From the NCBI GenBank assembly GCA_025361725.1, contig JANYJV010000010.1, forward strand, positions 6,541 to 70,540: a stretch of DNA of 64,000 nt, given 5' to 3'. The notes under the pieces are model-generated. The model was not told the DNA's origin. It saw only the letters and a list, made by a program, of their open reading frames with translations, and did not search any database. Source of the DNA: Acidimicrobiia bacterium (lineage in GTDB: Bacteria > Actinomycetota > Acidimicrobiia > IMCC26256 > JAENVU01). Both the position numbers and the translations under genes were made by a program. Numbering within the stretch: position 1 is the stretch's first letter; every line of letters begins with the position of its first letter. Positions 3,396 through 41,175 of this stretch are shown piece after piece.

Positions 3396-4487
3396 GTGTT
3401 CGAGTTGACGCCGGGCGCTCTCGATCTCGAGCTGTCGGGCGGTGAGCTCGTCGATCTTGGTCCGCACGAGTTGTTGCCAAGCGTCCCCTTCGGTCTCCCC
3501 CGAGGCCTCTCAGGCCGCCTCGCCGGCCGTCTGATGGCGGCCAACCATGAACAGCAACAAGAGCTCGCGCAGCTCGTGGAGCTGCCCGAGCAAGGCTCGC
3601 TCTGTGAGGTGGGTTACGGACCAGGTGTATTGCTCCATTTGCTCCGCACTCGATTTCCCCACGCCACCTTGTGCGGGGCAGATCCGTCGGCGCTGATGCT
3701 GCGCCATGCACTCCGGACTACGGCGGCCGACCCGGGCGACGGCGTGACCGACCTGCGCACTGGCGCCGTCGCGGACCTGCCCTTCGACCACGAAACGTTC
3801 AACGCGACGGTATCGATCAACACCGTGCAGTTCTGGCCAGATCTCCGCACGGGCCTCCGCGAGATCCGCCGCGTGACACGTCCGGGTGGCCAGGTTCTGA
3901 TCGCATGGCACGGCGGAACGGACCCTCGACGCTTCCAGCGCCGCCTGATTCTCGACGAGTCAGAACTCGCCCACATGGCATCGACCATCGAGGCACACCT
4001 CGGCGAGTTCCATCGAACGCGCCTCGCCCAATCAGAGCTCTTCACCGCCGGACTCCCGCGGAGCCTGCCGCCTGATTCGGGCGTGAGTCCATCGCCTCTC
4101 GGTGTCCCGACATCGTCTCGGCAGGCCATCAGGAACGGTGCAGGAGCCGGAGGCGCTTCCGTGTCCCGCCGGTCCAAGCCGCCGAGAAGCCGGGGCGGGA
4201 CTCGAGCGTCGGGGGTCGGGGGTCAGCGGAGCGCGCGGTCGAGGAAGCTGTCGAGCTCGCGGTTGTCGACATCGATGTGGAGGTGTTCGCCGTGGCGCTC
4301 GATATCGAGCGTGGGGCAGAAGAACGGGGCGCCGTCGACGAAAAAGTACGGGGAGCCGATGACGCCGCGGCGGATGCCCTCGGCGCGATCGGCGTCGACC
4401 GCGCCGCGCGCGGTCCTCGCGTCGGGGACGCCGAGGCCGTACCCGGCGGCGATCTCCGCGAGTACTTCCGGTCTACCAATCGCCTGA
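3396..4487 (+). CDS. Class I SAM-dependent methyltransferase with an abnormal read-through C-terminal tail
   Basis: GAGGAGG RBS before GTG 3396; EVGYGPG motif I, DLPF..ETFNA, LREIRRVTRPGG; the folded domain ends near 4060 and the tail overlaps the convergent gene. Confidence 0.75.
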   Translation: MFELTPGALDLELSGGELVDLGPHELLPSVPFGLPRGLSGRLAGRLMAANHEQQQELAQLVELPEQGSLCEVGYGPGVLLHLLRTRFPHATLCGADPSALMLRHALRTTAADPGDGVTDLRTGAVADLPFDHETFNATVSINTVQFWPDLRTGLREIRRVTRPGGQVLIAWHGGTDPRRFQRRLILDESELAHMASTIEAHLGEFHRTRLAQSELFTAGLPRSLPPDSGVSPSPLGVPTSSRQAIRNGAGAGGASVSRRSKPPRSRGGTRASGVGGQRSARSRKLSSSRLSTSMWRCSPWRSISSVGQKNGAPSTKKYGEPMTPRRMPSARSASTAPRAVLASGTPRPYPAAISASTSGLPIA

Positions 4488-33992: not shown

Positions 33993-35618
33993 TCAGTCCC
34001 GACGATCGCGCAGCTGCCGGTACCGGCGGATGAGCGCGTTCGTCGACGAATCGTGGGTGAGCTCCGCGTCGGAATCCAGTTCCGGGACGATCCGCTGCGC
34101 GAGTTGCTTGCCGAGTTCGACGCCCCATTGGTCGAACGAGTTGATGTTCCAGATCGCACCTTGGGTGAAGACCTTGTGCTCGTACAACGCGATGAGCTGG
34201 CCGAACGTGTGGGGCGTCAGTTCGGGCATCAGGATGGTGGAACTCGGGTGGTTGCCCGCGAACACGCGTGCTTCGACTTGATCCGTCTCCACGCCGTCGG
34301 CGATCACTTCCTCCCGCGTCTTGCCGAAGGCGAGTGCCTCGGGTTGCGCAAGCAGATTCGCCACCAGCAGATCCTGATGGTCGCCGAGCGGTTGGGCGGC
34401 ACGCGCCACACAGATGAAATCCGCCGGGATCAGCTTCGTGCCCTGATGAATGAGCTGGTAGTACGCGTGCTGGCCGTTGGTCCCCGCCTGACCCCAGACG
34501 ATCGGGCCGGTCTGCATCCCGACCGGCTCGCCCTCGCGGGTCACGGACTTCCCGTTGCTCTCCATGTCCAACTGCTGCAGGTACGCCGGCAGATGGGCGA
34601 GGTACTGGCTGTACGGCAGCACCGCGAGCGTTTCAGCACCGAAGCAGTTGCCGTACCAAACGCCGATCAGACCCATGAGCATCGGCAGGTTGGACTCAAT
34701 CGGTGCCGTCCGGAAGTGTTCGTCCATCGCGTGGAACCCGGCCAGCATATCGCCGAACTGGTCGGCTCCGATCGCGAGCATCAACGACAGGCCGATCGCC
34801 GAGTCGAACGAGTAGCGGCCGCCGACCCAATCCCAGAACCCGAACATGTTGTCCGGATCGATACCGAACTTCGTCACTTCGTCCGCGTTGGTGGACACCG
34901 CAACGAAGTGGCGCGCCACCGCGGCGTCGTCACGGAGTTTCGCGAGCGACCACTCGCGCGCCGAACCGGCGTTGGTCATGGTCTCGAGCGTGGTGAACGT
35001 CTTGGACGCCACGATGAAGAGCGTCGTCTCGGGATCCAAGTCCTGGGTCGCTTCACGGAAGTCCGAACCGTCGATGTTCGAGACGAACCGGTACCGCATC
35101 GAACGGTCCGAGAACGCCGCCAACGCAGTGGTCGCCATGCGCGGGCCGAGATCGCTGCCACCGATCCCGATGTTGACGATCGCGTCGATGCGCTTCCCGG
35201 TGTGACCGGTCCACTCGCCGCTCCGCACGCGCTCGGAAAATGCCGCCATGCGATCGAGCACGCCGTGCACCTCGGCGACAACGTTCACACCGTCGACGAC
35301 GATCTCGGCATCTCTCGGTGCCCGCAACGCGATGTGCAACACCGACCGATGTTCGGTGACGTTGATCGGATCCCCGCGGAACATCGCGTCCCGGAGTTCT
35401 TCCACGCCGGCGCGGCGCGCAACATCGGCAAGAAGCCCGATCGTGGCGCCGGTCAGCCGGTGCTTTGAGTAGTCCAGGAAGAGGTCGCCGGCCGTCGCGG
35501 TCAGGTCCTCGCCACGTTGGGGATCGTTGGAAAAGAACTCACGTAGATGCCGATCTTTGACTTCGTCGTAGTGCGCAACGAGCGCGTTCCACTCAGAGGA
35601 ATCCACCACACGCGTCAT
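33993..35618 (-). CDS. pgi: Glucose-6-phosphate isomerase
   Basis: [38 protein letters not shown]. Confidence 0.98.
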
Positions 35619-35700
35619 CGGGCGAGTCTGACACGCAGCCCCACCAAAACTGGCGACCTCTCCGCCCGTCGCGACCATGCGGCCGGCGCCGGGCGCGCGC

Positions 35701-36462
35701 TCAGCCGAGGTCGACCCAGGAACTCAACCCGAGCGCATCGAGCAGATCCGTGATGCGCGCGGTGAGCCACGACAACCGGTCGAGCGCGAGGAGGAGACCG
35801 AACCCGAACAACACCGCAGCCGAGATGAACGCGATGAGACGGAGATGGCGCTTCAGCGCGTTCAGCGCGGTGGTGGACGCACCGAACGCCAGTCCGATGA
35901 CCAAGAACGAGACGCCCATCCCCACCGAATACGCGGCGAGCAGACTCACCGCGCGCGCCGAGGTCTGGGTAGCGGCGACCCCGAAGACCGCGGCCAACAC
36001 CGGACCGAGACACGGAGACCAACCGAAGCCGAATGCGGCGCCGACGATGGGTGCGGTCGCCCAACCGAACCGTCGGTTCACCTGGAACCGCTTCTCCGGA
36101 TACAGGCGCGGCGCCCGCAACACCTGCGAGCCCACGAGGTAGAGCGCCATGACCATGACGAGGATCCCGGACGCGCGGGTCAGGGTCTCCTGGTTGTCGA
36201 ACGCAGCCTGCCCGATGCCGCTGGCCGCGAGCCCGAGGATCGTGAAGACTGATCCGAATCCGAGCGTGAACAGCGCCGTCGTCACGGCAACGCGCCCGAG
36301 GTTGGCGCGCTCACCTTCTTGTAGGTCCGCCACCGAGACGCCGCTCACCACGCTGAGGTAGCCCGGAACCATGGGCAGCACACACGGCGACAGGATCGAC
36401 ACGATGCCCCCGCCGAACGCGACGAGCAGCCCCACGTTGTTTGCCGTCACCGCAAGAAGCAC
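35701..36462 (-). CDS. ccdA: Cytochrome c biogenesis protein CcdA
   Basis: SPCVLP and GWSPCLGP with multiple transmembrane segments. Confidence 0.92.
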
Positions 36463-36551
36463 GGCGCCAAGGTTACGGGGCGGCGGTCTGGCTCTCGGCG
36501 TCGCCGCCCGCGCCGACGGGTGCGAACTCGCGTGGCGGGTTGGGGATCAAC

Positions 36552-36576
36552 TAGGATGATAGCGAACGTGCGTTCG
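36552..36576 (+). promoter_or_regulatory. Putative -10 element (TAGGAT) followed by a LexA/SOS box
   Basis: TAGGAT at 36552-36557; CGAAC-GTGC-GTTCG at 36563-36576 matches the Gram-positive/actinobacterial consensus; RBS GGAGGAG at 36623-36629. Confidence 0.7.
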
Positions 36577-36635
36577 CACATACGCATCCCTTCGATGCCG
36601 GACGCACCTCGTGGCTTTCGGCGGAGGAGTGGTCA

Positions 36636-38111
36636 ATGCAAGAGCGTAGGAACACCGCCACGTCGAACTTTGGCGTGTCACGTCGCGAAGGGCACGATGC
36701 GTCTGCCTTTTATGAGCGGTTCCAAGCGCCTGCAGTATCGACGCTCGACGCAGTACCCCCTCCCAAGCCGATCGACGAGCCGTTCCAAACCGGAGATGCG
36801 CGTCACATGGACTCGGTCGCGGATGGTTCCGTCGCGCTGGTCGTCACATCACCGCCGTACTTCGCCGGCAAGCAATACGAAGAGGAACTCGAGCGAGACG
36901 GAGTCCCCGCCTCGTACCTCGAGTACCTCGACCTCCTCGAAGCGGTCTTCACGGAGTGCAAGAAGAAACTTGAACCGGGTGGTCGCATCGCGGTCAACGT
37001 TGCGAACTTGGGGAGAAAGCCGTACCGCAGTCTCTCTGCCGACGTGATTCATATTCTTCAAGACAAACTCGGCCTCTTGCTGCGCGGCGAGCTGATTTGG
37101 CAGAAGGGTGAGGGGGCGACCGGATCGTGCGCGTGGGGATCGTTTCGCAGCGCCGCGAACCCGGTGCTGCGCGACATCACCGAACGGGTAGTCATCGCCA
37201 GCAACGGACGGTTCGACCGCGCCCGTACCGTCAAGCAACGCGAAGCTGAAGAACTGCCGTACCAGAGCACCTTGATGACCGAAGACTTCATGGCGCTCAC
37301 GCTCGACCTCTGGGAGATCCCGCCGGAGAGCGCGCGTCGCGTCGGCCACCCTGCACCGTTTCCCGTCGAGCTCCCGGAACAGTTGATCCGGCTGTACACC
37401 TTCGACAACGACCTGGTGCTCGACCCGTTCATGGGCAGCGGATCTGCGCTCGTGGCTGCGGCACGGCTCAATCGGCGCTACGTCGGTTACGACCTGGATC
37501 CCGAGTACGTGACGATCGCTCGACAACGTGTGGCGGAGGAGCTCGAGCCGACGCCGCCGGCCCCGTCGTCTCGGACGCGAAAGCCGATCACGATTCCGGC
37601 AGGCGTTGCGGACGACGAGGACTTCCAGAGCCGGGCAACACGAGAAGGCAAGGCCGCGCAGAAACTCGCCGAAGAAGTGCTCGTCGGCGCGGGCTTTGCA
37701 ATCTCTGAACGGAACCGCAAGATTCGAAAGACCGGCGTGACCATCAACTTCATCGCACAGGATGCTGCCGGCGAAACTTGGTACTTCGACGTCTCCGGTG
37801 CATTCAAGTCGCACCGCGGTGGTCTGCTTCGCACCGATACCGTTTGGAAGTCACTCGGACGCGCCAATGCGTTACGAGATCAGGTGGCAGAGGGCGTCCC
37901 ACTCGTCTTCCTCACGACCCATCTCCCTCGGCGACCGAGCGAAGGTGACACGGCACTGCGGTCGGCGGGGCCGAACGCATTCTTCGATGCGATCGAAATG
38001 TTGACGGACGAGGGCAGGGCCCGACTCGAGCAGTATGGCGACGGCGGTCATACGGCAGAACCACTGACTGGATTCTGGACCACCGGAGATCTTGATCGGC
38101 GACGGCGGTAG
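36636..38111 (+). CDS. Beta-class amino DNA methyltransferase (N4-C/N6-A) fused to a C-terminal PD-(D/E)XK-like domain
   Basis: VTSPPY (motif IV) precedes HPAPFP and LDPFMGSGS (motif I); a Pro-rich linker leads to about 165 aa with a Mrr/YraN-like pattern. Confidence 0.88.
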   Translation: MQERRNTATSNFGVSRREGHDASAFYERFQAPAVSTLDAVPPPKPIDEPFQTGDARHMDSVADGSVALVVTSPPYFAGKQYEEELERDGVPASYLEYLDLLEAVFTECKKKLEPGGRIAVNVANLGRKPYRSLSADVIHILQDKLGLLLRGELIWQKGEGATGSCAWGSFRSAANPVLRDITERVVIASNGRFDRARTVKQREAEELPYQSTLMTEDFMALTLDLWEIPPESARRVGHPAPFPVELPEQLIRLYTFDNDLVLDPFMGSGSALVAAARLNRRYVGYDLDPEYVTIARQRVAEELEPTPPAPSSRTRKPITIPAGVADDEDFQSRATREGKAAQKLAEEVLVGAGFAISERNRKIRKTGVTINFIAQDAAGETWYFDVSGAFKSHRGGLLRTDTVWKSLGRANALRDQVAEGVPLVFLTTHLPRRPSEGDTALRSAGPNAFFDAIEMLTDEGRARLEQYGDGGHTAEPLTGFWTTGDLDRRRR

Positions 38112-38426
38112 ATGCCCGACATTGTTGCGTGCGCGATCGTGCACGACGATCCGCCCGAGGTCTTCATTGCCGAGGACATCGAAACGCTCAACTGGATACT
38201 CGCGTTGAAGCTCATCGCCCAGTGTCCAGGACGAGAGGTGCCCGAAACGATCCGTGCTGCATTGCGATCGGCGGTTCTCGACGAGCAGTGGGGACAGGCG
38301 GTCAGTCTTTGGATGGAAGTTCGTCCAGGAGCCATCGACGTGTATCCGTCGTACGAGTTGTACCGACCTGAAGATGTCGCGCTGGCCCACGAAGAGTTGC
38401 AGTTTTCGCGCCTCTTCCTCGACTGA
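38112..38426 (+). CDS. Small acidic hypothetical protein (104 aa)
   Basis: Starts immediately after the MTase TAG and overlaps the next gene by TGATG; 19 D/E versus 7 K/R. Confidence 0.75.
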   Translation: MPDIVACAIVHDDPPEVFIAEDIETLNWILALKLIAQCPGREVPETIRAALRSAVLDEQWGQAVSLWMEVRPGAIDVYPSYELYRPEDVALAHEELQFSRLFLD

Positions 38427-39424
38427 TGCCCGGCGCGCTCACTGAAGTCACCGAGCTTTCGACTGCGCTCGGCATGCTCGTTGAAGATCTCGCTCGTGGA
38501 GTCTCTCAGCGACCCTCCCGACTCCTGCACGTCAGCGACGAAGCCTGGGAACATTTCACCGACGGCTACTACGCCGGCGACCATCGATCGATGTTCGACA
38601 CCGCCTTTCAGAACGGCGTGTCGTTTCTTCGGGCAGAAGACGGGTTGCGCAATCGCCCGCCGAAGGTCGTGGAGTGGAAGGGTCCCCACCGACCACCCGG
38701 TGACGACGTCGTTCCTGCCGATCTTCGGATCGATCACGTGTACCAGGTGAGTTGTAAGTACCTGTCGCGCATCATGCAGAACCCGGGGCCGGCGCGACTC
38801 TTCGACCGTCTACTCGTCGGCGAGGCGCGAACGAACACGAGCTGGTTCGAATCCGTCGCGCCGACCGAGTACCAAGCGTTCTATGCCGCCGCGCGCGCTG
38901 CGGTACCGCTCGAACTCCCGATGAGCGTCGGCGATATGACGATCGAGCAGCGTCACCTTTTGAGAGACGCCCTTCGACCGCGTCGACTGCCACCATCGAT
39001 GCAGGTCCCCTGGGCGGACCTCTGCCGGGCGGTCTCGATCGGATCGGCTGCCCGTTGGCAAGCTCGCCTCCAATCAGATCGCGATCGTGTGCGACTGCTG
39101 TGGAGGCTCTTGCGAATCGGTGACGCTCCGTACTTCGTGCTCGGCTCAGACGAGATGCATCACATGCGGCTCCGTGTTGCGTCGGCCTGGGATTGGGTTC
39201 AGACGTACGAACTCCGATCCTTCACCGTCGAACCGAGACGCGCCGGCCAACCAGAAGTTGCCTGGACCGCGGATGTTCGTTCGAGAGCGACGAGAGCCGT
39301 GACCACCATTGCGGGTCACGTCGAAGTGCGATGGAGCCATGGCCGATTCAACGGATCCCCCGAGGCCAAGGTGTATCTGGACACGCCGCTGTCGGGGACG
39401 CCGGGCTACTTCCCGCTCGAATAG
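38426..39424 (+). CDS. Hypothetical protein, putative restriction-endonuclease-like nuclease
   Basis: PADLRIDHVYQVSCK resembles the D...SxK variant of the PD-(D/E)XK site; located in an operon with a DNA MTase. Confidence 0.55.
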   Translation: MPGALTEVTELSTALGMLVEDLARGVSQRPSRLLHVSDEAWEHFTDGYYAGDHRSMFDTAFQNGVSFLRAEDGLRNRPPKVVEWKGPHRPPGDDVVPADLRIDHVYQVSCKYLSRIMQNPGPARLFDRLLVGEARTNTSWFESVAPTEYQAFYAAARAAVPLELPMSVGDMTIEQRHLLRDALRPRRLPPSMQVPWADLCRAVSIGSAARWQARLQSDRDRVRLLWRLLRIGDAPYFVLGSDEMHHMRLRVASAWDWVQTYELRSFTVEPRRAGQPEVAWTADVRSRATRAVTTIAGHVEVRWSHGRFNGSPEAKVYLDTPLSGTPGYFPLE

Positions 39425-39440
39425 AGCGCGGACCTTCTCC

Positions 39441-40277
39441 TCAGTCGAAGGGCGGCAGGGAGGGGAGGTCGCCGGCGAGGAGCTCGTCGACGCGGACCCG
39501 GAGCGCGGTGGCGTAACCGTCGCCCGTGAGTTGCAGATAGCGGTTCGAGCGCACCGCGTCCACCACCATCGCGGCGGCCTGCGCCGGCGGCATCCCTCGA
39601 TCGGTGTTCTCGTCGAGCATGCGGTCGACGAACTCGGATTCCGGGCTCATCTCGGTCGCCGTCGCGGCGGGCCGGTTCCGATCCGAGGACGCAATCCCCG
39701 TCTTGACCGCGCCGGGGCACAATGCCGTCACCCCAATGGGTGCGCCCGCCGAGGCCAGCTCGCCGGCCAGGCATTCGGTCAGCCCGAGCGCGGCGAACTT
39801 CGAGGCGGTGTAGGGCGCGGAGTACGCCGAGGCGAAGAGACCTGCGGCGGAAATCGTGTTCACGATGTGACCCGGCCGGCCGCGCTCGATCATCCCCGGG
39901 ACGAAGGCCTGGATCCCATGCAGGATCCCGTAGAAGTTCACCCCCATCACCCATTCGAAATCGGCGACGGGCCGGTCCCAGGTGAGGCCGCCGGCGAACA
40001 CCCCCGCGTTGTTGCACACGACGTCCGCACCGTCGAACTCGCGCTCGACGCGCGCCGCGAACTCGTGCACCGCGTTCGCGTTGGAAACGTCGACCGTGAC
40101 TGCAATCACCGTCGCGCCGGTCGAACGGAGTTGGGCTTCGGTGTCGTGCAGCGCGTCGGCCTGCACATCGGCGATGGCCACCCGCATCCCAACGGCAGCG
40201 AACGCGTGGGCGAGTGCTTGCCCGATCCCACTTCCCGCGCCGGTCACGACGGCACACTTGCCGTTGAGCTGATCCAT
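39441..40277 (-). CDS. Short-chain dehydrogenase/reductase
   Basis: TGAGSGIG, NNAG, YTASK. Confidence 0.93.
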   Translation of the reverse strand: MDQLNGKCAVVTGAGSGIGQALAHAFAAVGMRVAIADVQADALHDTEAQLRSTGATVIAVTVDVSNANAVHEFAARVEREFDGADVVCNNAGVFAGGLTWDRPVADFEWVMGVNFYGILHGIQAFVPGMIERGRPGHIVNTISAAGLFASAYSAPYTASKFAALGLTECLAGELASAGAPIGVTALCPGAVKTGIASSDRNRPAATATEMSPESEFVDRMLDENTDRGMPPAQAAAMVVDAVRSNRYLQLTGDGYATALRVRVDELLAGDLPSLPPFD

Positions 40278-40320
40278 GCGCGCAGGCTAGGTGCCGCGCA
40301 ACACCGCTAACTTCGACACC

Positions 40321-41175
40321 ATGCGCGTATCGATCGGAAACACCCGCCTCTTCGTCGACGTCGAGGGACTCGGTCTCGTCCCCGACGGCGCGACCATGCG
40401 CGCCAAACCGACCCTGATCCTGCTCCACGGCGGTCCCGGGTTCGACCATTCGAGTTTCAAACCGCATTGGTCCCAGTTCACCGACATCGCGCAGGTCGTG
40501 TACTACGACCATCGGGGCCAAGGTCGCAGCGATCGTTCGGATCCCGAAACGTGGAACCTTGAGCAATGGGCCGCCGATCTGGTTGCGCTCTGTGACGCGC
40601 TCGAGATCGTCGACCCCATCGTTTGCGGCGTGTCATTCGGCGGGATGGTCGCCCTCCAGTACCTCGTCGATCACCCGACGCACGCGAGTCGGGTGATCCT
40701 CGATTCCACAACGGCCCGCTCTGATCCGGCGCTGATGCTCCCGGTGTTCGAACGACTCGGCGGCCCGGCCGCACGAGATGCGGCGGAAACGTTCTGGGCC
40801 GAACCCACTCCCCAAGCCATGAAGCAATATTTCGAACTCTGCATGCCGCTCTACAGCCGTACGACCGCGCCCGACGCCGCCGACCGCATGCACCGCCAGA
40901 TCGAAGTCGCGAACTACGCCCTGTTCGGCCAGTGGAGTCGAGGCGAACAACGAACCTTCGATCTCACCGCTCGCCTCTCCCAGGTGCAACGGCCCGTGTT
41001 GCTCCTGGCCGGGGAGGACGATCCGGTCTGTCCCGTCGACGGAGCCGAAGTCATCGCGGCCGGGATCCCGCACGCACGCTTCGAGCGGTTCGACGACTGC
41101 GGCCATGGAGTCTGGCGCGACCAGCCTGACCAGGCCTTCCATCTGATTCGGGATTTCATACTCGGCCGAGCCTGA
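40321..41175 (+). CDS. Alpha/beta hydrolase (proline iminopeptidase-like)
   Basis: HGGPG, DHRGQGRS, GVSFGG, GEDD, CGH. Confidence 0.9.
   Translation: MRVSIGNTRLFVDVEGLGLVPDGATMRAKPTLILLHGGPGFDHSSFKPHWSQFTDIAQVVYYDHRGQGRSDRSDPETWNLEQWAADLVALCDALEIVDPIVCGVSFGGMVALQYLVDHPTHASRVILDSTTARSDPALMLPVFERLGGPAARDAAETFWAEPTPQAMKQYFELCMPLYSRTTAPDAADRMHRQIEVANYALFGQWSRGEQRTFDLTARLSQVQRPVLLLAGEDDPVCPVDGAEVIAAGIPHARFERFDDCGHGVWRDQPDQAFHLIRDFILGRA

Follow-up and report, generated by a model that had tools for sequence, protein, structure and literature searches.

A predicted LexA-controlled, type II-like restriction-modification cassette at a conserved DNA methylase locus of Acidimicrobiia

The known regulators of restriction-modification (R-M) systems are C-proteins, the methylase and antisense RNA. 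In the PvuII-type Type IIP organisation a beta-class N4-cytosine methylase and an endonuclease are separate proteins, and in Streptococcus pneumoniae the alternative R-M cassettes DpnI and DpnII occupy one locus. Methylases with an associated nuclease are also familiar from Dam-MutH and Dcm-Vsr. Here we describe a three-gene cassette in a 64,000 nt stretch of an Acidimicrobiia genome (GCA_025361725.1, contig JANYJV010000010.1; the whole stretch is called the window), which we interpret, with a probability of about 0.5, as a type II-like R-M cassette under LexA repression that took the place of a resident solitary methylase. Among published systems it comes closest to Caulobacter ScmA and its Vsr-like companion VsrA; according to the passages on vsrA in that report, vsrA mRNA increases on DNA damage and a LexA box is suspected (PMC12907096). 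LexA also controls toxins, and symE, tisB, yafNO and dinJ-yafQ are given as examples in a 2013 review of R-M regulation, whose LexA and SOS passages name no LexA-controlled R-M system (PMC3874152). A search of the full-text literature likewise found no such system.

The cassette comprises gene 1 (36636-38111, + strand), an open reading frame (ORF) of 491 amino acids, gene 2 (38112-38426, +) of 104 amino acids, and gene 3 (38426-39424, +) of 332 amino acids. The stop codon of gene 1 directly abuts the start codon of gene 2 (TAG then ATG; cggTAGATGccc), and both genes are read in one frame, with nothing but the TAG between them. The start of gene 3 overlaps the stop of gene 2 in a TGATG junction (gacTGATGccc). 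The initial annotation of this DNA had described three coupled genes between ccdA and a short-chain dehydrogenase/reductase (SDR) gene, and the coordinates and both junctions agree with that description.

Upstream of gene 1 is the strand-symmetric palindrome GCGAAC-GTGC-GTTCGC (36562-36577), whose core CGAACGTGCGTTCG (36563-36576) has the form CGAAC-N4-GTTCG of a LexA operator. As noted earlier, the box begins 5 nt after TAGGAT (36552-36557, +), a -10-like hexamer of the TANNNT type that was read from the sequence. An E. coli-type sigma-70 scan scored no promoter here, and neither the sigma-70 promoter scan as a whole nor the terminator scan scored anything; an Rfam scan of 35500-40500 gave no match. 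Hexamers resembling TAGGAT, TAGCAT or TAGTAT recur 5′ of orthologous methylase genes. A Shine-Dalgarno-like GGAGGAG (36623-36629, +) lies 6 nt ahead of the gene 1 ATG and is kept in the related locus L013. The same locus also keeps a CGCG (actcgcgtg) that in the window lies where a -35 element would be expected (36529-36532), 17 nt 5′ of TAGGAT; CGCG is very common genome-wide.

In the window CGAAC-N4-GTTCG occurs once, against 0.23 expected, and at least one match appeared in 19 of 100 shuffles. On the window alone the palindrome is weak, and genome-wide and comparative data lift it far above chance. The genome assembly that holds the window (3.53 Mb, 151 contigs, 83.5% complete) contains 25 perfect boxes, two of them 66-97 nt 5′ of lexA (contig C132, 21566-22288) and one 5′ of recA. 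Ten further genes that start just 3′ of a box were scanned for family. Five are classic SOS genes, encoding a Y-family polymerase (IMS, dinB), an RNase_T-GIY-YIG-UVR exonuclease, a DnaE2-type Pol III alpha subunit, a DUF222 protein and RuvC; the other five encode a SnoaL protein, a HAD hydrolase, an acyl-CoA dehydrogenase and two proteins that match no family. About half of the 25 boxes fall within ORFs. As the motif precedes lexA, recA and SOS genes, we take it to be the organism's own SOS box. The gene for the DUF222 protein (contig C121, 107-1342) stands behind its perfect box (C121, position 7) at a contig end; mycobacterial 13E12-type repeat proteins belong to the same family and are presumably LexA-regulated.

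To follow the box across species, loci were gathered around gene 3 homologues in relatives (14 loci) and in GTDB species (80), together with 37 loci of the methylase in relatives without gene 3, and were annotated with hidden Markov models from alignments A1-A3 and from the methylase N-domain. Duplicates were dropped (L027 equals L014, L049 equals L016, L062 equals L018 and L102 equals L017) and 19 loci without a full methylase match were set aside. The remaining 109 loci each have a full methylase preceded by 130 nt of sequence or more, and in them the best box within 130 nt of the methylase start was scored. A perfect box is present in 15 of these loci and a box with one mismatch in five, 39-91 nt 5′ of the start codon. 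At the genome-wide frequency of 25 sites in 3.53 Mb, about 0.09 perfect boxes would be expected, although the loci are related and the counts are not independent events. The half-sites are intact across 10 different spacers (GTGC, ATTT, GAAC, GAAT, GCAT, GCAC, ACAT, ACGT, AGGT and ATCC). The annotation's proposal of LexA control is thus well supported by sequence comparison: the motif marks lexA, recA, dinB, dnaE2 and ruvC in this genome and recurs 5′ of orthologous cassettes.

The distribution of the box follows the architecture of the locus. Boxes with no more than one mismatch occur in 20 of the 74 loci with accessory genes and in 0 of the 35 that carry the methylase alone or with only the C-terminal domain of gene 1 (the C-domain). 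The latter comprise 19 solitary methylases, 14 methylases with the C-domain and two methylases that run into a contig end. When gene 3 is adjacent without gene 2, a box is found in one of seven loci lacking the C-domain and in three of 38 having it; it is found in 11 of 23 loci with C-domain, gene 2 and gene 3 (eight perfect), in all three with C-domain and gene 2 only, in the single locus where a contig ends after gene 2, and in one of two where it ends after the C-domain. Grouped by gene 2, the counts are 15 of 27 cassettes with this gene and 4 of 78 without. A strict tie between box and gene 2 was considered and is weakened by L033, L060 and L092, in which a perfect box stands before a methylase with no detected gene 2. 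The box is absent from most loci and is therefore a subclade trait.

Nine or ten loci (L028, L031, L032, L037, L038, L041, L045, L048 and L090, with a similar sequence in L029) have CGCGC-N4-GTTCG, often as tCGCGCGTATGTTCGa, at the position of the box, about 46-68 nt 5′ of the methylase start. Here the right half-site is unaltered, and a CGCG-rich sequence replaces the left one. This variant could be a weakened LexA site, or the methylase's own site if the methylase targets CGCG.

Gene 1 begins with a beta-class DNA methyltransferase (36636-37595, +). PF01555 matches amino acids 66-296 over profile positions 1-220 of 221 (E = 1.3e-37), the PADLOC model MTase_II matches with E = 1.7e-82, and the closest solved relatives are 2zie (3e-35) followed by the DNA cytosine-N4 methyltransferase 8s9m/8s9n and M.PvuII (1boo). 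The protein carries SPPY at amino acids 72-75 and, after it, the SAM-binding motif I (FxGxG) as FMGSGS at amino acid 265, and SPPY is kept in 47 of 47 members of the family. Motif IV reading SPP(Y/F) instead of DPPY is the rule for the N4-cytosine subtype. The near-full-length PF01555 match, both motifs and the N4-cytosine relatives agree with a beta-class methyltransferase of this subtype, as had been proposed from the sequence.

The methylase is far from rare among the relatives of the window organism. Its N-domain (amino acids 1-320) is present as a single copy in 54 of 61 relatives at 59-89% identity, and in 32 of the 34 relatives' genomes that are at least 90% complete; the window genome gives one match only. 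In a sample of the phylum it was found in 41 of 301 genomes, including most sampled genomes of the class and 20 of 20 from one further family, a tally that includes unpublished genomes (G061, G078, G108, G179, G207, G233, G285 and G298) on which the 20 of 20 partly rests. By its distribution, then, the gene looks like a lineage-wide component of a conserved locus and not like an ordinary mobile R-M methylase. One marine metaepigenome study, in the passages that treat Acidimicrobiia, reports methylation of CGCG and BAAAA in all metagenome-assembled genomes (MAGs) of the class, with BAAAA (N6-methyladenine) assigned experimentally to other, poorly conserved methylases (PMC8919816). Because both CGCG methylation and an N4-type methylase are class-wide, the methylase family is a natural candidate for N4-methylcytosine at CGCG, a match that we offer as a lead. 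Palindrome avoidance in the genome is uninformative about the target site: CTAG alone stands out, with an observed/expected ratio of 0.26, and the ratio for CGCG is 0.97.

The C-domain of gene 1 (amino acids 321-491; 37596-38111, +) comprises about 170 residues that match no Pfam family, and a sequence-profile search of the PDB gave chance-level matches only. Its AlphaFold2 model is confident, with a predicted local distance difference test score (pLDDT) of 90.8 and a predicted template modelling score (pTM) of 0.86. Foldseek placed it nearest to NucS (2vld, E = 1.9e-3, probability 1.00), EndoMS (5gke) and PspGI (3bm3), with SfsA, Can2, Card1, EcoO109I and FokI also among the best neighbours. 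The E values are marginal, at 1.9e-3 to 1.2e-2 for NucS, EndoMS and PspGI, whose TM scores are 0.40-0.51, and all of the matches are PD-(D/E)xK folds. The alpha-beta-beta-beta-alpha-beta core of this fold is present in the model, and the D...(D/E)xK triad is not. Because the beta-3 strand reads F-D-V-S-G in alignment A3, the catalytic lysine has been lost, and the upstream aspartate varies among 24 homologues. These features support the earlier description of a degenerate nuclease, in that the model has a restriction-endonuclease-like fold with a catalytically dead site.

Homologues of the C-domain form 568 representative clusters, in which it is free-standing, attached to the C-terminus of a methylase, or located at the N-terminus of proteins of about 305 amino acids. 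A free-standing paralogue of 137 amino acids, found 3′ of gene 2 or of the methylase (L120:4291-4701; L113, - strand; L110:3926-4336; L138:3916-4332), has the canonical motif intact as EID...W-F-E-Y-K-G, matches no Pfam family and stands in for gene 3 in sister cassettes. In four of the longer proteins (P0174, P0179, P0218 and P0258; about 305-350 amino acids) an N-terminal C-domain is followed by a domain of about 150 amino acids with the pattern ...GGCT...G.WVDP..G.V.E.V...DLDQ.A..., and this second half gave no Pfam match. Profile comparisons with hhalign found the proteins of about 305 amino acids unrelated to gene 2 or gene 3, and the C-domain unrelated to gene 3.

Gene 2 encodes an acidic protein, as the initial annotation had recognized, with an isoelectric point (pI) of 4.29 and 19 Asp and Glu against 7 Lys and Arg residues. 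The 21 aligned homologues all have pI values of 4.05-4.64. None of the 43 homologues found is named, and searches of Pfam, PADLOC, NCBIfam and PDB profiles returned no family, the Atlas giving unnamed clusters only. Every locus with gene 2 also carries the C-domain, and in L113, L120, L123 and L140 gene 2 occurs without gene 3 and is followed by the different small nuclease. P0308 is a natural fusion of methylase, C-domain and gene 2. Given the shared reading frame with gene 1, this fusion and the persistence of gene 2 without gene 3, we infer that its product is a partner of the methylase or of the C-domain. A predicted complex of the C-domain with gene 2 scored 0.00, which speaks neither for nor against binding.

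Gene 3 carries PADLRIDHVYQVSCK (D99...K111), which contains the PADLRID...VSCK motif noted at the outset. Of 8000 proteins scored, more than 3377 match its family at E ≤ 1e-3, and relatives are encoded in at least 571 GTDB species. Each of E83, D99, R101, D103, S109, C110 and K111, and likewise each of D256, E300, R302, H305, E313 and K315, is kept in 85 or 86 of 86 full-length homologues. The PADLOC REase_II model PDLC03456 matches amino acids 227-319 weakly (E = 4.6e-4), and it matches 25 of 26 homologues with a best E of 1.4e-5; true members of PDLC03456 were found in none of the 301 phylum genomes and 14 control genomes. Because of the invariant residues and the consistency of the PDLC03456 matches, we consider it rather probable that gene 3 is a nuclease. 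The AlphaFold2 model (pLDDT 89.2, pTM 0.85) is helical at its N-terminus and continues with a small beta-hairpin that holds D99...K111, then a long insert of helices, and ends in a sheet of seven strands. E300...E313-A-K315, on neighbouring strands, falls within the stretch matched by PDLC03456 and is as good a candidate for a catalytic (D/E)...ExK as PADLRID...VSCK. A profile search of the PDB sequences gave only chance-level matches, and Foldseek against BFVD found three uncharacterised viral proteins (E = 3.1e-7 to 1.5e-4). An Atlas lead towards RE_HaeIII was rejected: it came from one cluster with PF09556 in 10% of its members, none of 26 homologues matches PF09556 at E ≤ 10, and the family search of the genome at the same threshold was empty.

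Gene 3 is found in 15 of 61 relatives, compared with 54 for the methylase. Among the 80 GTDB loci it lies directly 3′ of the methylase in 66 and 5′ of it in two, and it is unlinked in 11. The order methylase, gene 2 (where present), gene 3 is held in the relatives' loci, and all three genes occur together at the 23 loci mentioned above; order and co-occurrence in other genomes had both been named with the initial annotation as points to check. All 12 unlinked copies examined (the 11, plus L022) keep the invariant residues. Neighbours of the 11 include genes for an amidohydrolase, a luciferase-like monooxygenase, an SDR, an EAL protein, methylenetetrahydrofolate reductase (MTHFR) and an aldehyde dehydrogenase; in L085 and L098 gene 3 at 4001 overlaps the MTHFR stop codon (cTGATGcc) and the aldehyde dehydrogenase gene follows, so that it is embedded in a metabolic operon. 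Five of five tested genomes with an unlinked gene 3 hold the methylase elsewhere, which is weak evidence as the family is near-universal. In three relatives (G026, G031 and G033; L024-L026) frameshifts or stops disrupt the methylase gene as well as gene 3. In L025 and L026, which retain a perfect and a two-mismatch LexA box respectively, gene 2 is disrupted too. Gene 3 homologues at 46-53% identity occur in MAGs labelled as Burkholderiales (L047, L091), Planctomycetota (L052) and Armatimonadetes (L063), outside Actinomycetota, and could reflect transfer or binning error.

The cassette is flanked by genes for a CcdA/DsbD_TM protein (35701-36462, - strand) and an SDR (39441-40277, -), beyond which lie pgi and an alpha/beta hydrolase gene. 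Its GC content is 0.59-0.63, compared with 0.64-0.69 in pgi, ccdA, SDR and the hydrolase gene, and the GC content at third codon positions is 0.70-0.72 compared with 0.77-0.87, which bears out the impression of an AT-richer segment. In the window's family and in several others the methylase adjoins ccdA-pgi, in either orientation. The window's genus has three arrangements at this locus: a short methylase of about 320 amino acids alone, without a LexA box (L132, L133, L135, L141 and L142); a methylase with C-domain, gene 2 and the 137-amino-acid paralogue, with a perfect or one-mismatch box (L113, L120, L123 and L140, with L143 cut by a contig end); and the methylase with C-domain, gene 2 and gene 3, with a perfect box (the window, L013 and L014). 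Between L141 and the window ccdA is 98% and SDR 91% identical, whereas the methylase of L141 is short, 63% identical and in the opposite orientation. In a FastTree phylogeny of 47 methylases the three forms found in the genus fall in distant clades, each with members from other families. The approximately unbiased (AU) test in a quick IQ-TREE analysis (LG+G4) rejects monophyly of the 13 methylases of the genus (difference in log-likelihood 230, p = 4.9e-52), a test run after the FastTree tree had been seen and with the group set by taxonomy. As the clades are distant, monophyly is rejected and the flanks of L141 match, the cassette appears to have been exchanged as a unit at a conserved site. 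In the R-M module first proposed for this DNA, the LexA link, the methylase and the C-domain have held up; the near-universal methylase and the allelic cassettes had been missed, as had the unlinked, box-free copies of gene 3 and the small nuclease that some sister cassettes carry in its stead.

On the interpretation that we favour, gene 1 is the lineage's SPPY methylase fused to a dead restriction-endonuclease-fold domain, gene 2 would be a small acidic partner of the methylase or C-domain and gene 3 the endonuclease, from which the methylase would protect the host at a shared target site. LexA would bind the operator 5 nt 3′ of the -10 hexamer and keep basal expression of the translationally coupled operon low. 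On DNA damage, LexA cleavage driven by activated RecA would let all three products rise together. The cassette would have come in as a unit, displacing a resident solitary short methylase allele.

Several observations weigh against this interpretation. The methylase family is near-universal in the order, and were its alleles all of the same specificity, a nuclease matched to them could hardly tell the DNA of relatives from its own. It would also be unusual for a classical R-M system to repress its sole protective methylase copy along with the nuclease. No box with at most one mismatch precedes 53 of the 68 loci with an adjacent gene 3, and none was found at any of the 12 unlinked copies examined. 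In 11 of the 80 loci an intact gene 3 has metabolic genes for neighbours and no methylase gene within 4 kb of it, the protein is 43-65% identical across the families of the order, which is unusually conserved for a restriction enzyme, and tblastn against plasmids and phages gave no match. Gene 3 also matches no Pfam family, and Foldseek of its confident model against the PDB returned nothing at E ≤ 1e-3. The call of a restriction-endonuclease-like nuclease for gene 3 in the initial annotation therefore finds agreement in the weak REase_II matches and none among solved folds.

Because gene 3 is conserved, at times unlinked and unmatched on plasmids and phages, repair-type and toxin-type roles remain rivals. 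Gene 3 might be a methylation-linked nuclease for damage processing or repair, following the logic of Dam-MutH, Dcm-Vsr and ScmA-VsrA, and act within the SOS regulon as a repair or strand-discriminating enzyme. The single-copy methylase, much like a solitary housekeeping enzyme, would suit such a role, as would an operator common to the operon, dinB, dnaE2, ruvC and recA, a gene 3 that is strongly conserved and stays intact within metabolic operons, and the lack of relatives on plasmids or phages; in the vsrA passages of its report, ScmA-VsrA provides a parallel in damage-raised mRNA and a suspected LexA box (PMC12907096). We nevertheless judge this role unlikely. A gene found in 15 of 61 relatives and decayed in three is unlike a core repair function, its product has no similarity to MutH, Vsr or NucS, its unlinked copies lack LexA boxes, and the genome already encodes NucS, the usual actinobacterial mismatch nuclease (MutS was not found in it). 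An SOS-triggered toxin module for abortive infection or addiction, in which gene 3 would be a toxic nuclease, gene 2 its inhibitor (a DNA mimic or antitoxin) and the methylase fusion mainly a scaffold or regulator, draws on the uniform acidity of gene 2, its TGATG coupling to gene 3, the larger share of loci with a LexA box among those that have gene 2 (15 of 27, compared with 4 of 78 where it is absent) and the well-known LexA-controlled toxins treated in the SOS passages of PMC3874152. Against such a module, gene 2 precedes a different small nuclease in four loci that lack gene 3, and gene 3 is found without gene 2 in 45 loci (38 with the C-domain and seven without) and alone in 11. The reading frame shared with the methylase and the fusion in P0308 tie gene 2 to the methylase rather than to gene 3, and we think a toxin module quite improbable.

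Nor need gene 3 be a nuclease at all: the cassette could be an SOS-tuned epigenetic module of a methylase with readers or regulators of its mark. The absence of a solved nuclease fold matching the confident model, the weakness of the PADLOC match and its restriction to amino acids 227-319, and the failure of the RE_HaeIII lead would all accord with this. Against it, the invariant D99, D103, K111, E300, E313, K315, H305 and R302 resemble a metal-dependent phosphodiesterase site, the link of gene 3 to the methylase is consistent across loci, and sister cassettes fill the gene 3 position with a small protein bearing the canonical D...E-Y-K motif, so that we give an epigenetic module little credence. 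That the palindrome is a chance or decayed site without regulatory role could be argued from the shuffled windows, from the boxes that lie inside ORFs and from the sigma-70 scan, but a box at the same position 5′ of orthologues, with conserved half-sites and free spacers, and its absence from all 35 solitary-methylase loci make this very improbable. A further and still doubtful proposal departs from classical defence R-M: the cassette would be a nuclease system that is gated by DNA damage and reads methylation, with N4-methylcytosine as a 'self' mark throughout the class. SOS induction would then raise the nuclease against unmethylated DNA, such as an induced prophage or incoming or freshly made DNA; the dead nuclease domain would be a decoy subunit and gene 2 a DNA mimic, together forming a gate; and the nucleases, gene 3 or the 137-amino-acid ExK protein, would be swapped at one locus.

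Should the favoured interpretation of a LexA-repressed R-M cassette hold, placing the single copy of a lineage-wide methylase and its nuclease under the SOS repressor would be a new link from DNA damage to defence or epigenetic marking. The analysis also exposes three unannotated families, namely those of gene 3, of gene 2 and of the mobile nuclease domain in its dead or live form, and it provides a clear case in which Acidimicrobiia, abundant bacteria of which hardly any have been cultured, appear to have exchanged cassettes at a conserved methylase site. A candidate enzyme is offered for the class-wide CGCG methylation reported in the Acidimicrobiia passages of the metaepigenome study (PMC8919816).

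Compared with PvuII-type Type IIP systems, the cassette likewise has its methylase and probable endonuclease adjacent, co-oriented and translationally coupled, its nuclease is patchy with decayed copies, and the whole cassette appears to move between genomes. Unlike those systems it has a LexA operator and no C-protein, its methylase is near-universal in the order and fused to a dead nuclease-fold domain, a third, acidic protein is present, and gene 3 falls in no curated restriction endonuclease family above threshold and can sit far from the methylase. The initial annotation placed the system outside the standard R-M types, which is fair for the architecture and regulation, whereas the core logic would be type II-like. 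As with DpnI and DpnII, close relatives carry, at one position between shared flanking genes, deeply divergent cassettes that exclude one another; unlike DpnI and DpnII, all alleles here keep a methylase of one family (59-89% identity), and the variable part is made up of the accessory genes for the C-domain, gene 2, gene 3 and the small nuclease. The C-domain resembles NucS/EndoMS and PspGI in its predicted fold (Foldseek probability 1.00), but the Pfam NucS_C model misses it, the genome's one NucS_C match being on another contig, and its ExK lysine is replaced (D-V-S), while the free-standing paralogue keeps E-Y-K. Like symE, tisB, yafNO and dinJ-yafQ (PMC3874152), the cassette would hold a potentially self-damaging gene silent through LexA and release it on damage; those, unlike this cassette, are toxin-antitoxin modules. 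With ScmA-VsrA, Dam-MutH and Dcm-Vsr it shares a lineage-conserved methylase and a dispensable nuclease, although gene 3 resembles neither MutH nor Vsr in sequence or fold. The tie to the DNA-damage response is shared with ScmA-VsrA in particular, where, in the vsrA passages of the report, the suspected LexA site is that of vsrA (PMC12907096), whereas here the entire operon, including the methylase, stands behind the LexA box.

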